Virus genome (UHGV): UHGV-1550212
From: a virus
Length of the DNA: 64,000 bases
Reading direction: 5' to 3' (one strand)
In this document: in pieces, positions 6,510-64,000 of the stretch
Layout: each line of letters begins with the position of its first letter
Position numbering within the stretch: the first letter of the stretch is position 1
The notes under the pieces: model-generated
The model's input: only the letters and a program-made list of their open reading frames with translations
Database searches by the model: none
What the model was told of the DNA's origin: nothing
Program-made: the position numbers and the translations under genes

Positions 6510-7802
6510 CTACAACAATGACGGCACTCGTTGAGTTTCAAGTGGGTCGCTGACATTGATGCCTGTGTATGCAACAAGTCGTTGTATTGGGCCAAGTACG
6601 AGTTTTTCGAACATGAGTCGTTTGTTCATTGGCGGCACATCTGGCATATACTTCGGTGTCGGCATTTCGCCTGGTGCAAAGCCAAATGCATCGCAATATT
6701 GACGAGAGCCAATTGGTATATTTGACAAATCTGACTTTGCTCTGTCAACAAAGTAGTAGAACACTCGACCGCCTTCAATCAATGGGTATCGTGTTTCCAA
6801 TCCATGTGCTTTGACAAGACAGTTATGCCAACAACATGCTCTATATTGAGGCAGTACACCTTTTGCTAACTGCCATTCACCATCATAGCTTAGCACATAG
6901 TCATGATACTTGTTTGCATTGACATATGCACAAAGTTTCTCCAAGTCTTGCTCGGCTTCAAAGCGTTTCCATAATTTCTGTATGAGCTTTGGATATGTCG
7001 CAGAAGTTAATTCGCCTCTGAACATTTTCTTGAATGCATAATCAAGCATTTGTCTAACAAGCATTGACGAGCCTGTTTGAATAAGTTCGATGCCTTTGCC
7101 TTGAATGTGCTCAGTAGGGTCTTCGAATACTCGACCATCTACATATATTTGAGCCTTTAAGTACTTTTTCTTTTGGGCAAATAATGCAGTGTCAGAAATC
7201 GTTTCGAGGTCAAATAGCAAAATTGAATTGCCGTGGCGTTTTGCGAGGTCTGCTGCATATGCACCATTGAATAACTCTTCCATACGATATTTGAATATCG
7301 CAAGAATCAAGTCATACCAATTTTTGCCTATGTAGCCAATTGATTTGACAGTTGGCTCAAAGTGAATGTACAAAGAGTCTGTATCAATGTACAACACTTT
7401 GTCTTCATAAGGCTCTTGCTTTGGCGACACAGACAAATCAAAATTGCCCTTCAATTGTGGGTCATTACGCAGCTTTTCATGCAATTCATAATCACACCAC
7501 CACTTATTGTTGAGATAGTCATTTGCTACTCGTTCACCAAAGTGAATGAAGTTGCGGCCTTCAGCAGTAATTGATTCTGCAACTGCCATATTAAAGAAGT
7601 GATAGAAACGATTGCTTGTAGCGCCATATATTGAGTTTCGACAACATTTTGCTGAGACTTGCAGTCCTGCATGCTTTAGTGATTCTTGCATTGCAAAATC
7701 TCTCAATTCAAATAGACGTTCAGTAGACAACTGGCTTAAATCACCAGTCAAATCTACTCCATCTATTTCAATTTTTGACATATCTATCTGAGCTTCTGCC
7801 AT
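6510..7802 (-). CDS. family B DNA polymerase, C-terminal part (motifs B and C)
   Basis: Contains K-x3-NSxYG (KCCRNSIYGATSN), YIDTDS and KKKY motifs; has its own promoter (7824-7853) and terminator (6453-6494). Confidence 0.85.
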   Translation of the reverse strand: MAEAQIDMSKIEIDGVDLTGDLSQLSTERLFELRDFAMQESLKHAGLQVSAKCCRNSIYGATSNRFYHFFNMAVAESITAEGRNFIHFGERVANDYLNNKWWCDYELHEKLRNDPQLKGNFDLSVSPKQEPYEDKVLYIDTDSLYIHFEPTVKSIGYIGKNWYDLILAIFKYRMEELFNGAYAADLAKRHGNSILLFDLETISDTALFAQKKKYLKAQIYVDGRVFEDPTEHIQGKGIELIQTGSSMLVRQMLDYAFKKMFRGELTSATYPKLIQKLWKRFEAEQDLEKLCAYVNANKYHDYVLSYDGEWQLAKGVLPQYRACCWHNCLVKAHGLETRYPLIEGGRVFYYFVDRAKSDLSNIPIGSRQYCDAFGFAPGEMPTPKYMPDVPPMNKRLMFEKLVLGPIQRLVAYTGINVSDPLETQRVPSLL

Positions 7803-60777: not shown

Positions 60778-61089
60778 TTAATGCCGAGTTTTTGCAGATA
60801 TAGCTACTTTAATTGTTGCTTTAATTTGTTCGATTGCATCTTGTGAGAACAATTCTGACACTGCTAAATAGTGATACCATGATGTTGGCGCTGCCTGCAT
60901 ATCAGTTCGTTTAATTGCGAACCGAAGTTCTTTTGGTGAACCAAGGCAACCCATATATTGGCAGCTTATTAGCTTAACTTGCACATTGTTAATGCTGCTA
61001 TGAATAGCAAGATGAGACAGATTTATTCTGTCATAGAATTTTAGATGCTTGAGTTGTTTTTCAATTGCTTTGAATGTGTTTGTGTTCAT
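60778..61089 (-). CDS. hypothetical protein
   Basis: 103-aa ORF with promoter at 61128-61156 and the shared initiation context. Confidence 0.4.
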   Translation of the reverse strand: MNTNTFKAIEKQLKHLKFYDRINLSHLAIHSSINNVQVKLISCQYMGCLGSPKELRFAIKRTDMQAAPTSWYHYLAVSELFSQDAIEQIKATIKVAISAKTRH

Positions 61090-61127
61090 TGTTGTAGAGG
61101 TTTTATATCATATATTGATATATGATA

Positions 61128-61156
61128 ATTATACTACAACAATCATAAATTTGCAC
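61128..61156 (-). promoter_or_regulatory. sigma70-like promoter (GTGCAA-N17-TATAAT)
   Basis: Consensus -10; upstream of 60778..61089, in the divergent region shared with the plus-strand genes. Confidence 0.5.
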
Positions 61157-61255
61157 TAATTTAATATATATAATATGTCAATAAATTTCACATACAAAAG
61201 TCTTTTCGCTTATGAAAACTACTCAACTCTGGTTTGAACGCCAGCAGTCAATCGC

Positions 61256-61262
61256 GGGGGGG
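61256..61262 (+). repeat. homopolymeric G7 tract separating upstream ATG from the main ORF
   Basis: ATG at 61212 and ORF 61280..61912 are in different frames across this tract. Confidence 0.8.
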
Positions 61263-61279
61263 CTCTTCGTGACACAGGC

Positions 61280-61912
61280 GTGCACATATATGTGCGTGAC
61301 AATGCTGATAACATTGTTAATGGGTTAGCTTGCTATTTACACTGTATTGAAACAGGGCGAACACTTCAAAGAGGCTTGTATACAAGCAATAATGGTGATG
61401 GCGTCACATTTTACATAACTGGTGATGACTATAAGCAATTAGTCGGTTCAACAAAAGATGCACAGTTTTATCTTATTGACACACCTGATGCTGCAAATAT
61501 GTCTTGGTTATCTGTAGCATTTACACTTAGATATGGCGCAGATATTGCTAACAACACACTAAATGTCAATATTGAAGCGTTCAAATCATGCGAAGTAACA
61601 ATAACTAACAGTGGCAATACATGCAGTTGCACCGCAATGCTTGAATGCAAGTTGCCAGCGGCAATTAAACTGTCAACAATTTGCAATACATCAGTAGCAT
61701 CTAATGTCAATGTGTCAGTTAATATAACAGCAAATAGCTTGGCTGCTAATTTTAGAGTTGGCAATAGCTTATCTGCAAAATTGACACATGTCGGCATATG
61801 GTCTATTGCTAATGCTTCTTATGTTTCACCAATATATGAGGGCGCTATAATTGTAAGAACACTGTCTGACATATTTCATGTGTTCATAACAGATAATACA
61901 ACACTTGCCTAA
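61280..61912 (+). CDS. hypothetical protein; likely phase-variable (5' ATG at 61212 is out of frame across a G7 tract)
   Basis: Track ORF starts at a GTG; an upstream ATG (61212) reads MKTTQLWFERQQSIAGG through the G7 run at 61256-61262 and stops at 61328; one extra G would fuse it to this ORF. Confidence 0.4.
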   Translation: MHIYVRDNADNIVNGLACYLHCIETGRTLQRGLYTSNNGDGVTFYITGDDYKQLVGSTKDAQFYLIDTPDAANMSWLSVAFTLRYGADIANNTLNVNIEAFKSCEVTITNSGNTCSCTAMLECKLPAAIKLSTICNTSVASNVNVSVNITANSLAANFRVGNSLSAKLTHVGIWSIANASYVSPIYEGAIIVRTLSDIFHVFITDNTTLA

Positions 61913-61937
61913 GTTTTTAACATAAACTCCTCAAATC

Positions 61938-62435
61938 ATGAACATTACAATGAACTGGGGGGGCTCTAAATTAGTCTACCTGCAGCTTGTTATTGGTGAT
62001 GCTTCATTGTACAACTTTGGCACTACTGAAACAATGGCGATACAAGGTACAATATCGCTTGACAATGTGGCAGTTAACATACCAACGTCAGGCTTTCCTA
62101 TCAAAATGATGGAATGCCGCGGTGGTGAAACTTACGCCATTGGTGCGTTAATGATGCCAAAAGCTTATGACTACTCAAACTTTGCTGCAAAAATTGGCTT
62201 TGGCTGTTATGCAGCAGATGGCCGTGGCACCGGCAATATTTACAACATCAATGCGTATGCCAACATCAACAGCACAAGCCCTGGTGGCAATCCTATACTG
62301 TTAACTTCTATGGCATGGCAGTATCCATTGGGTGTTGGTGATAAGTTTACATTGCCAATGTCAAACCCATCTGTCAAAGTTAACAATGGAGATATCGTGT
62401 CAATCATACTTAAGAATGCAAAGAAAGTCAGCTAA
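61938..62435 (+). CDS. hypothetical protein with 5' poly-G tract (in frame)
   Basis: MNITMNWGGS...; G7 run at 61957-61963 in codons 7-9; followed by a plus-strand terminator. Confidence 0.5.
   Translation: MNITMNWGGSKLVYLQLVIGDASLYNFGTTETMAIQGTISLDNVAVNIPTSGFPIKMMECRGGETYAIGALMMPKAYDYSNFAAKIGFGCYAADGRGTGNIYNINAYANINSTSPGGNPILLTSMAWQYPLGVGDKFTLPMSNPSVKVNNGDIVSIILKNAKKVS
61957..61963 (+). repeat. homopolymeric G7 tract in 5' coding region
   Basis: Codons 7-9 (W-G-G) of 61938..62435. Confidence 0.8.
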
Positions 62436-62461
62436 CTGACAAACGCATCACATATAAGCAA

Positions 62462-62495
62462 TGCACCACTGAGATTTCTCAGTGGTGCATTTTTA
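62462..62495 (+). terminator. intrinsic terminator
   Basis: 13-bp stem TGCACCACTGAGA/TCTCAGTGGTGCA with 2-nt loop, followed by TTTTT; downstream of 61938..62435. Confidence 0.65.
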
Positions 62496-62500
62496 TGTTA

Positions 62501-62552
62501 TTTGCAAGTGGAGTTGTCACCCACCTCAGCACAATTTGGCGACCTCATTGAT
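62501..62552. repeat. 52-bp direct repeat, copy 1
   Basis: TTTGCAAGTGGAGTTGTCACCCACCTCAGCACAATTTGGCGACCTCATTGAT; identical except one base to 62586-62637. Confidence 0.75.
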
Positions 62553-62585
62553 GTTAATAAACATCATTCAGTGGTTGATGACTTG

Positions 62586-62637
62586 TTTGCATGTGGAGTT
62601 GTCACCCACCTCAGCACAATTTGGCGACCTCATTGAT
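62586..62637. repeat. 52-bp direct repeat, copy 2
   Basis: TTTGCATGTGGAGTTGTCACCCACCTCAGCACAATTTGGCGACCTCATTGAT; period 85 bp; in the convergent intergenic region 62496-62737. Confidence 0.75.
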
Positions 62638-62737
62638 AGTGCGTTGATGGCGAATTTTACACGACATCTATATACTTTAATGTACCAACCTAAGCATACG
62701 ATGATCTATATGCAAAAGTAAGAATTTTAAGTATTTA

Positions 62738-62771
62738 TACAATAAAAGCGACCCAAATCATTAGGTCGCTT
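62738..62771 (-). terminator. intrinsic terminator
   Basis: 8-bp stem AAGCGACC/GGTCGCTT with 10-nt loop and U-rich tail on the minus strand; downstream of the BNR lipoprotein gene. Confidence 0.5.
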
Positions 62772-62797
62772 CTTATATATTCCACCATTAAAACTGG

Positions 62798-63799
62798 CTA
62801 TTTTGCTGGCACAGCAATTATTCCACTTGGAACAGTTGTTATAATGCCTCCATTTTCATCTTTAACTATTTCTGTGGGTGTCCATGTTTCACCATCTATT
62901 GATGTTGTTATCATATTAACATATTTGGAATAACTATTATTCCAAGAACGGCCGACAGCAATAAACATTTCACCATTATATATGACATCCATCCAATTAC
63001 CATTAACATCTGTGGTGAATTTTGTCCAAGTTTGTCCATCATTGGATGTAAAAATATGCCCGTTAGAACTACTACATACGAATTTACCATTGCCAAACGC
63101 CATTCCATATCCTATAAGCATACTCGACGGTACTGCATATTTTGACCAAGTTGTACCATCAGTAGACACTCCAATATATGTACTACCATTGCCCATTGTA
63201 ACAAACCTGCCATTGCCATACGCAATTGACAACAAACCGTGACTTGAATCAAACCATTTCGGCGTTGTCCAACTTGTCCCATTGGCGGAGGTTGATATAC
63301 GGCCACTACTACCAACCACTACGAATTTACTATTACCGTATGCAATATCAGCCCAATTATATGTAGCAGAGGAATCTACTTTATAAGTTGTCCAATTTGT
63401 ACCATCAGTGGATACTGCGATATAACTATATTGGCCACAGACAACAAATTTTCCATTCGCATATATAATTCCATTCCATGTATAAGAAGAACCTGCTATT
63501 TGTTTCGGCGTTGTCCAATTCACGCCATCGGTTGACGTTGTTACATATCCATTCGCACCAACAGCTACGTATTTTCCATTACCATATGCAATGGCATTCC
63601 AACCATTTGTACCAACTACTGCCATAATGTTTTCTTCGATTTTAATTGTTCTTAAATCTTCGGTCAACGGCGGAGTAGTCGGTTCTTCCGGCTTTTCAAT
63701 AGGTGGTTCTACCGGCTCATCAAATCCCCCCCCGTCATTTTTCTCGCAGGATGCACACATCCAAGCACATACCGCAATGCAAATCATCTTTTTAATCAT
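62798..63799 (-). CDS. BNR/Asp-box repeat (beta-propeller-like) lipoprotein with 5' poly-G tract
   Basis: Lipoprotein-type signal MIKKMICIAVCAWMCASC; six repeats each with S-x-D-G-x-x-W-T (STDGVNWT, STDGTNWT, VSTDGTTWS...); G8 run at 63726-63733 encodes NDGGGF. Confidence 0.6.
   Translation of the reverse strand: MIKKMICIAVCAWMCASCEKNDGGGFDEPVEPPIEKPEEPTTPPLTEDLRTIKIEENIMAVVGTNGWNAIAYGNGKYVAVGANGYVTTSTDGVNWTTPKQIAGSSYTWNGIIYANGKFVVCGQYSYIAVSTDGTNWTTYKVDSSATYNWADIAYGNSKFVVVGSSGRISTSANGTSWTTPKWFDSSHGLLSIAYGNGRFVTMGNGSTYIGVSTDGTTWSKYAVPSSMLIGYGMAFGNGKFVCSSSNGHIFTSNDGQTWTKFTTDVNGNWMDVIYNGEMFIAVGRSWNNSYSKYVNMITTSIDGETWTPTEIVKDENGGIITTVPSGIIAVPAK
63726..63733 (-). repeat. homopolymeric G8 tract (coding strand) in 5' coding region
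   Basis: C8 on plus strand; encodes GGG just after the lipoprotein signal peptide of 62798..63799. Confidence 0.8.
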
Positions 63800-64000
63800 A
63801 ACTGCGTTTTTTAAGGTTTGTATAAATCGACATTAAAAGTAGTCATTTCAGATGATATTGCAAAATCGGAATTTCAGCAATCATTTCGGTTGTACGGTCG
63901 TTTTTACAATCGTGCCCTTTGTTCCGACAATAATTACATCCACAGTTTTTTTCGTCTTGGCTGCATTCTGTGCCCAATACCAAAGTGTCGTTACATTCAT

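Follow-up and report, generated by a model that had tools for sequence, protein, structure and literature searches.

The pair of direct repeats analysed here, in the genome of virus UHGV-1550212, probably represents the silent-end junction, present in two tandem copies, of a locus at which tail-fibre-like cassettes are switched. The window, i.e. the whole stretch of DNA that was analysed, was 64,000 nucleotides long. The second repeat copy was found to form the beginning of a cassette gene, which was interrupted by an IS1595-family transposon (IS). In related genomes the same cassettes were found at both ends of the locus, with the breakpoint at a 47-nt box to which the repeats belong. The explanation taken as a whole, in which the repeats are silent-end junction copies of a switching locus with an IS-hit silent cassette, is considered likely. 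From the comparison of sequences we infer that the inversion is ongoing and adaptive, i.e. programmed switching rather than recurrent evolutionary rearrangement.

The window is part of a ~176-kb phage-like contig (ENA ERZ27261301, k119_106340), in which nearly all genes were found on the minus strand. The genome was found to contain T4/PAU-like replication genes (a family B polymerase, gp32, an SbcCD-like nuclease and helicases). Among cultured phages, the greatest similarity (25-31% amino-acid identity) was found with jumbo phages of Bacteroidota and with Sphingomonas phage PAU, and the virus is probably an uncultured gut phage infecting Bacteroidales. The minus-strand ORFs at positions 1-58000 of the window were found to include two thymidylate-synthase-like genes, dCMP deaminase, MazG, dUTPase/dCTP-deaminase-like genes and DUF488, which together point to a remodelled nucleotide pool or a modified base.

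Repeat pair and cassette gene

A preliminary description of this DNA had reported near-perfect 52-bp direct repeats, 85 bp apart and differing at one base, and this was confirmed; the copies at 62501-62552 and 62586-62637 differed at 1 of 52 positions, with a start-to-start distance of 85 nt. A repeat search of the window extended the pair to 55 nt per copy with two mismatches (96% identity), separated by a spacer of 30 nt (Table 1). The mismatches, A/G and A/T, were both located within the flank. The copies were relatively GC-rich, as had been stated (0.46-0.47 vs 0.40 for the window). The exact 45-nt core was present only twice in the 64-kb window, whereas 0 of 100 dinucleotide shuffles yielded two matches. 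Each copy was found to contain a 22-nt flank followed by box DNA encoding PTSAQFGDLID(SALMA). The spacer was found to be homologous in five lineages and about 27% variable.

Table 1. Positions of the features of the locus within the window
Feature	Position	Strand	Description
Arm of perfect long inverted repeat	61166..61275	+	110 nt, just upstream of the 210-aa gene; self-blast locus 166-275 vs 5130-5021, 100%
210-aa gene	61280..61912	+	beta-rich; first plus-strand gene in an otherwise minus-strand region; no Pfam/PHROG match
165-aa gene	61938..62435	+	directly upstream of the silent cassette end; no Pfam/PHROG match
Intrinsic terminator of 165-aa gene	62460..62491	+	hairpin with 14-bp stem, then T-run
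Repeat copy 1	62498..62552	+	22-nt b-flank 62498-62519 and first 33 nt of box 62520-62552; no variable region behind
Cassette ORF, 5′ portion	62551..62662	+	in-frame ATGs at 62551, 62578 and 62647; ...VELSPTSAQFGDLIDSALMANFT, then interrupted by the IS
Spacer	62553..62582	+	30 nt: 17-nt insert, then degenerate remnant of the box 3′ part (AGTGGTTGATGAC vs AGTGCGTTGATGGC)
Repeat copy 2	62583..62637	+	b-flank 62583-62604 and box; 5′ end of silent cassette gene
Full box	62605..62651	+	47 nt, encodes PTSAQFGDLIDSALMA; putative crossover site
Target-site duplication TTTTACAC, left copy	62655..62662	.	8 bp; same 8 bp after the right IS end in L001
IS1595-family transposon, left part	62663..64000	-	2572 bp in total, extends past the window end; transposase gene beyond 64000
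Lipoprotein-like passenger gene	62798-63799	-	333 aa, inside the transposon

It had also been stated that no ORF explains the repeats, which is incorrect. Within the ORF at 62482-62721, the stretch from about 62551 or 62578 to 62662 was found to be the genuine start of a cassette gene, which is truncated by the IS at 62662. Copy 2 is in frame with this gene, and the intact form of the truncated gene was found to continue in three contigs (L001, L009 and L018; contigs are given by L numbers and proteins by P numbers). Intact forms found elsewhere include P0001 and P0036, the latter, in L018, being an intact homologue of the window cassette with 99% protein identity. The rest of the cassette ORF (QVTASG...INRAFYK) is located beyond the IS, outside the window; when the two sides of the target site were joined, a plus-strand ORF reading ...VELSPTSAQFGDLIDSALMANFT followed by QVTASGTINVV...LINRAFYK was restored.

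A database search gave 31 homologues of about 135 aa. The alignment of these homologues was found to contain the invariant box PTSAQFGDLIDSALMA, followed by a variable body of ~100 aa and a conserved C-terminus (LINRAFYK). Two alternative sequences were found in front of the box, MAVQTRSVLKTYFETGDK in state a and ...CL(H/Q)VELS in state b, the latter being the flank found in the window repeats. The a-state proteins contained the constant N-terminus MAVQTRSVLKTYFETGDK-PTSAQFGDLIDSALMA. The silent copy begins only at the 47-nt box, and its first 18 codons were found to be replaced by the unrelated 22-nt flank.

No sequence match of the cassette protein was found in Pfam, PHROG or PDB. The AlphaFold (AF2) model of P0008 (pLDDT 86.8) was found to consist of a beta sandwich preceded by two helices at the N-terminus. 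In Foldseek, the model was matched to the N-terminus of the CBA120 tailspike TSP4 (E 3e-3), more weakly to T4 gp9/gp10, and to many tail-fibre/baseplate models of BFVD (E 1e-5 to 4e-7, TM about 0.45-0.5). The cassette N-terminus was matched by tblastn to a Flavobacterium phage 'structural protein' (E 8e-5), and the cassette genes border a module of structural genes, among them those of BACON-like and 1442-aa repeat proteins. Going by the predicted model, the cassette products may be tail-fibre/baseplate-like proteins. One family member, P0046, was a 236-aa chimera of two paralogs fused at the ALMA motif, arising from ectopic recombination or misassembly. In L011 (10487-10500) the inner paralog was found to contain a stop at codon 4 (ATG GCT GTA TAA), so that both cassettes and paralogs can be inactivated in some strains.

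Inserted transposon and locus layout

The repeats had been placed in a convergent intergenic region, in the gap between plus- and minus-strand terminators. Both terminator hairpins were found, the left one being kept in all relatives in the alignment, but the right one (about 62744-62775) belongs to the IS1595-family transposon starting at 62663. The locus only looks convergent and intergenic because the IS brought in the minus-strand lipoprotein gene and the right terminator, and the convergent region as described is an artefact of the insertion. To judge from the sequence, the 333-aa minus-strand gene to the right of the repeats is a transposon passenger and not a phage gene. This passenger was found to be a BNR/beta-propeller-like lipoprotein, with internal repeats at 63011-63614 (120-123-nt period, five copies at 67-78%) that are consistent with beta-propeller blades.

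The transposon was found to start with an imperfect 71-nt terminal inverted repeat (77% overall, tips identical at 26 of 27 positions), and to cut the cassette gene at 62662/62663. The transposon part of the window was covered by a public contig, L001, at 99.97% identity, in which the element continues to 13297; the transposase gene of L001 was found to contain the Pfam domains DDE_Tnp_IS1595 and Zn_ribbon_IS1595. In its transposase with the N-terminal zinc ribbon, its terminal inverted repeats, its 8-bp target duplication and its passenger gene, the element is like other members of the IS1595 family; it is unlike them in its location inside a phage genome, within a silent cassette. The element was common to L004, L005 and L006 up to exactly GATGTC, followed by divergence. 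Two IMG/VR contigs with the 333-aa gene were identical downstream to exactly ...TATATAGATGTC, and beyond that point contained unrelated DNA. Other copies (L004, L005, L006, L020 and L021) were found in unrelated contexts, and no matching 8-bp duplication was found for the copy in L004. The chromosome of Alistipes timonensis JC136 was found to carry a copy with 92-93% identity. The IS in the silent cassette would leave the flipped state defective in the window strain.

The IS-free locus was reconstructed from L002 and L009, two scaffolds of one sample that both end at the IS target site from opposite sides, and from the inverted-repeat ends of the 176-kb contig, whose two ends are inverted repeats of each other. 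In the orientation of the window, the IS-free locus was found to contain the 210-aa gene (+) and the 165-aa gene (+), followed by the terminator, copy 1, and copy 2 with the VarP1 cassette (+). These were followed by a 142-aa paralog (+), a central bidirectional terminator, a 134-aa paralog (-) and P0008 (-). P0008 is located outside the window and contains the full N-terminus, the box and Var8; it is presumably the expressed copy. The 210-aa gene was found to be syntenic in L007, L015 and L018, and the 165-aa protein had an exact match on the 176,073-bp contig k119_106340 (ENA ERZ27261301). The arrangement of two genes, a terminator and two inverted genes was found with the same design on the single contig L018 and partly in L012, L013, L015 and L019.

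The box of copy 2 and that of P0008 form a 52-nt inverted repeat of 98% (locus 1604-1655 vs 3377-3326). The homology of the boxes begins exactly where the N-terminal flanks diverge and ends at the start of the variable parts. An inner inverted repeat of 281 nt (91%) was found to extend from the 3′ ends of the cassettes through the intergenic spacer into the beginnings of the inner paralogs. The partner of the 110-nt arm is located upstream of a 217-aa structural gene, outside the window (L009 8301-8410; L007 8307-8197). The two 110-nt arms, about 4.7 kb apart in the IS-free locus, bracket the 210-aa and 165-aa genes, the cassette segment and the 217-aa gene. This inverted repeat was conserved at 97-100% in all relatives (seen in L007, L009, L010, L011, L015 and L018), and could be a shared promoter/leader or serve as arms for the inversion of a larger segment. 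Tandem 34-nt repeats, each with a hairpin (3.6 copies, 98% matching), were found immediately in front of the expressed a-state gene in L009 (9632-9796), L007 (about 7160-7250) and L018 (12059-12137); these may be a promoter/operator array.

Related genomes and alternative readings

Every variable type was found in both the a and the b contexts, the a and b copies being from different or unidentified samples. The matches, written from b to a, were the window to P0001/P0036, P0005 to P0008, P0016 to P0010, and P0011 and P0014 to P0019, P0023 and P0026. The variable parts of P0032, which is in the b-state and present on 72 contigs, and of the a-state protein P0034 were found to be identical; P0034 was confined to two contigs of ~1 kb, as a minority flipped form might be. 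Between the window phage and L018, a 923-bp block of box, VarP1, 142-aa gene and terminator was found to be inverted at 97.2% identity, whereas the outer flanks were collinear at 90-93%. The breakpoint of this inversion was the first base of the box. L018 was thus found to carry, in the a-state, a cassette with 99% protein identity to the one that is silent and IS-disrupted in the window. The two loci are more than one inversion apart, their other arms carrying different cassettes. The expressed Var8 type of the window was found at the silent end in L013, inverted, at 92.8%. Because the same cassettes occur at either end in relatives and the 923-bp block is inverted exactly at the box, the box appears to be the crossover point for cassette switching. 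A recombination site had been one of the four candidates listed in the preliminary description, and it is the one that was retained.

In the proposed mechanism, the outer P0008-type copy, with its full N-terminus, would presumably be expressed, and the inverted silent cassette starting at the 47-nt box of copy 2 would form the opposite end of a segment of ~1.8 kb. A crossover between the two inverted boxes would flip the segment, so that the expressed N-terminus would acquire the other variable body together with the paralog downstream of it, in the manner of the Mu G and P1 C segments. The engine may be the homologous recombination of the phage itself, or an unlinked or host enzyme.

The alternative that survives best, although it is unlikely, is that the locus is only a scar: an ancient inverted partial duplication with a 5′-truncated pseudogene, in which the repeats arose by slippage in decaying DNA, switching is not taking place, and the cassettes were occasionally exchanged by homologous recombination between co-infecting phages. 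It would be in keeping with the recombinase searches, in which no serine or tyrosine recombinase (Resolvase, Phage_integrase) was found by Pfam in the 59 window ORFs and none in the gene calls around the locus in L010, L016, L017 and L018. The box is also not a symmetric site: the best 26-mer was symmetric at 6 of 12 positions (shuffle mean 6.65; 96% of the shuffles were equal or better), and no Gin/Hin-type half-site was found in it. The silent cassette tolerates the IS, copy 1 decays in some lineages, and between the 54 nt upstream of copy 2 and the expressed gene a weak similarity was found over the initial 18 codons of the latter (p about 0.02), as a decayed copy predicts. The simple-layout relatives hold the same perfect box. 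However, the silent-end box was found to be invariant, with 0 of 47 variable columns vs 14 of 51 in the adjacent DNA across five lineages (p=5e-5). Coding constraint alone does not explain this identity, because 9-11 nucleotide differences were found in the inner paralogs, although the encoded peptide is almost the same. The silent cassettes were intact ORFs in every IS-free relative, and each variable type was present in both contexts, one pair with an identical variable sequence. The inverted block, at 97%, was more similar than its flanks (90-93%), so that the transfer or inversion was recent and not ancient.

A silent end was absent from the simple layout of L007, L016 and L017. The expectation that conservation of the box needs an inverted partner in the same genome was not borne out in L016 and L017, which keep a perfect box. 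In L007, a single gene was found whose box combines the outer and inner types, which is what a deletion between tandem paralogs would produce.

The cassette-switching reading also covers the tandem arrangement of the repeats. The tandem unit was found to contain the flank, 33 nt of the box, the 17-nt insert and the degenerate remainder of the box. Copy 1 would be an extra flank and box unit from tandem duplication or unequal crossing-over, with no cassette behind it. A search for further copies had been proposed; the motif was not found again in the 64-kb window, and 0-3 units were found in the relatives. Three silent-end units with an 84-nt period were present in L019, and two intact units in the window and in L012. 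Two units were also found in L013, the first with 4 mismatches, and in L014 and L015, the first with a 28-nt internal deletion. L018 contained one hybrid unit, in which copies 1 and 2 are collapsed, and no units were found in L007, L016 and L017. The period of the window, 85 nt, is out of frame, and that of L012 is 84 nt with a stop codon; the reading frame of the spacer was not conserved, being closed by a stop in L012 and in frame in L014 and L019. In L019 (607-1140) all three units were found to share the reading frame of the cassette, and the resulting ORF is 177 aa long. Because the units vary in number and state among the relatives and the spacer frame is not kept, copy 1 appears to be a dispensable product left by unequal crossing-over or tandem duplication, sometimes re-homogenised with copy 2. 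It could also act as an alternative, non-productive crossover point, in which case the junction would read a-flank, box and GTTAATAAAC....

A 38-mer of the box was found in the JGI metagenomes in one contig, L019, and an exact 20-mer of the box in IMG/VR only in the one related contig. An exact 29-mer search of IMG/VR gave no match, and the 32-mer of the Var31 junction gave none in IMG/VR or the JGI metagenomes. No match of the region was found by megablast among the INPHARED phages.

It is highly improbable that the repeats are cis-regulatory or RNA elements, i.e. a tandem promoter/operator, a 5′ UTR structure or the duplicated small-RNA genes that had been suggested. In favour of this reading, they are located between two terminators and just upstream of a gene start, or overlap it. 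Folding of all 362 nt of the region was also more stable than that of shuffled sequences (z about -5), an excess for which the two terminator hairpins account. No Rfam match was found at 61000-62800 even at E<=1, and nothing relevant was found in the whole window with Rfam at the gathering threshold or in the tRNA/tmRNA scan. The repeats are homologous to the coding sequence of the paralogs, their copy number is 0-3 in close relatives, copy 1 is internally deleted in L014 and L015, and the motif occurs nowhere else in the 64 kb.

Replication-origin iterons and a packaging site, the remaining earlier candidates, can be dismissed as barely credible together with a phage mini-CRISPR (55-nt repeats, 30-nt spacer): they share only the geometry of two direct repeats 85 nt apart with a 30-nt spacer, whereas for iterons or a pac/cos site there are two copies only (usually at least three for iterons), no AT-rich unwinding element or initiator gene was found nearby, and the repeats are absent from the otherwise syntenic L007, L016 and L017; the spacer is homologous across the five lineages and not variable as in CRISPR, no cas genes were found in the Pfam scans, and the repeat encodes the conserved peptide of a protein family. 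A diversity-generating retroelement was rejected, with no RT domain, mismatches that are not adenine-specific and the repeat at the conserved 5′ end of the gene. A protein repeat was also rejected, as the 85-nt period is not a multiple of 3 and the same peptide is read only in different frames, with the frame of the spacer unconserved.

Known switching systems and biological meaning

Invertible tail-fibre segments are those of Mu (G, Gin), P1/P7 (C, Cin), e14 (Pin) and p15B (Min). The locus is like these segments in having the crossover site inside a fibre-type gene at the junction of the constant N-terminal and variable C-terminal parts, where the 52-nt, 98% inverted repeat was found. It is also like them in having two sets of a variable part and a downstream gene in opposed orientation (VarP1 with the 142-aa gene vs the 134-aa gene with Var8, with a terminator between), one end having the promoter and N-terminus and the other being silent, and in having the same cassettes at either end. 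Unlike these segments, no adjacent serine invertase was found, and the 47-52-nt box does not have the dyad symmetry of the 26-bp Gin/Hin-type site. Other differences are a constant part of just 18 codons, small proteins (about 135 aa), a silent-end site present in 1-3 tandem iterations, and a carrier that is not a temperate phage of the Mu/P1 type but a large phage whose replication module is T4/PAU-like. The results do not support placing the locus in the Gin/Hin family.

In shufflons (R64 pilV/Rci), an adjacent tyrosine recombinase acts on short (10-31 bp) asymmetric sites. The locus is like the shufflons of R64 and of BV01-like phages in containing several C-terminal cassettes of a surface-recognition protein with short conserved repeats between them, and in its nested inverted repeats, which permit more than one rearrangement. 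It is unlike them in that no Rci-type or other recombinase was found around it, in its longer, coding repeats of 47-52 nt and 281 nt, and in that two of its four genes, the inner ones, are complete and are not promoterless fragments. The BV01-like Phocaeicola phages, which are also gut Bacteroidales phages, contain a recombinase-flanked tail-fibre shufflon (PMC13596623).

Exchange without a dedicated enzyme is found in two further systems. Tetart et al. are said to have reported in 1998 that recombination between conserved motifs in T-even tail-fibre genes swaps adhesin specificity. The likeness to the T-even phages lies in a virulent-looking genome with its own recombination/replication machinery, and in conserved blocks that flank the receptor-binding parts, and may extend to an exchange that needs no dedicated site-specific enzyme; the T-even exchange, in contrast, takes place between genomes and is not an intramolecular flip to a silent store. 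In lytic cyanophages, recombinase-independent isomerisation at inverted repeats was described (bioRxiv 10.64898/2026.02.14.705889). It also has no dedicated site-specific enzyme, but it inverts about 30 kb between repeats of 400-700 nt, and gene splicing is not known for it. Tail-fibre genes also figure among the systematically predicted programmed inversions. Invertible tail-fibre segments and shufflons are already well known; the present locus differs in that no recombinase was found linked to it, that its coding box is long and asymmetric, that its silent end is iterated in tandem, and that it is carried by a large phage with a T4/PAU-like replication module.

A wider interpretation is tentative and on the whole doubtful. 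In it, a large, apparently virulent gut phage would flip a 1.8-kb segment without a linked recombinase to switch its receptor-binding tip, the iterated boxes (1-3, 84/85-nt period) would give in-frame, extended or frameshifted (off) fusions, and the silent store would be a safe harbour for transposons with passenger genes, the host possibly being Alistipes. The 92-93% identical element of Alistipes timonensis is a host lead for this phage group. The locus is also a warning that an IS insertion, together with assembly breaks at nested inverted repeats, can disguise a coding recombination site as an intergenic repeat.

If the switching is active, host-range variation of the Mu type would extend to abundant uncultured large Bacteroidales gut phages, one cassette allele alone being found on about 70 assembled contigs. 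It would operate without a linked invertase, so that searches for inversions anchored on recombinases would miss such systems. The 47-nt box is a concrete site at which gut phages that track phase-variable host surfaces may be studied.
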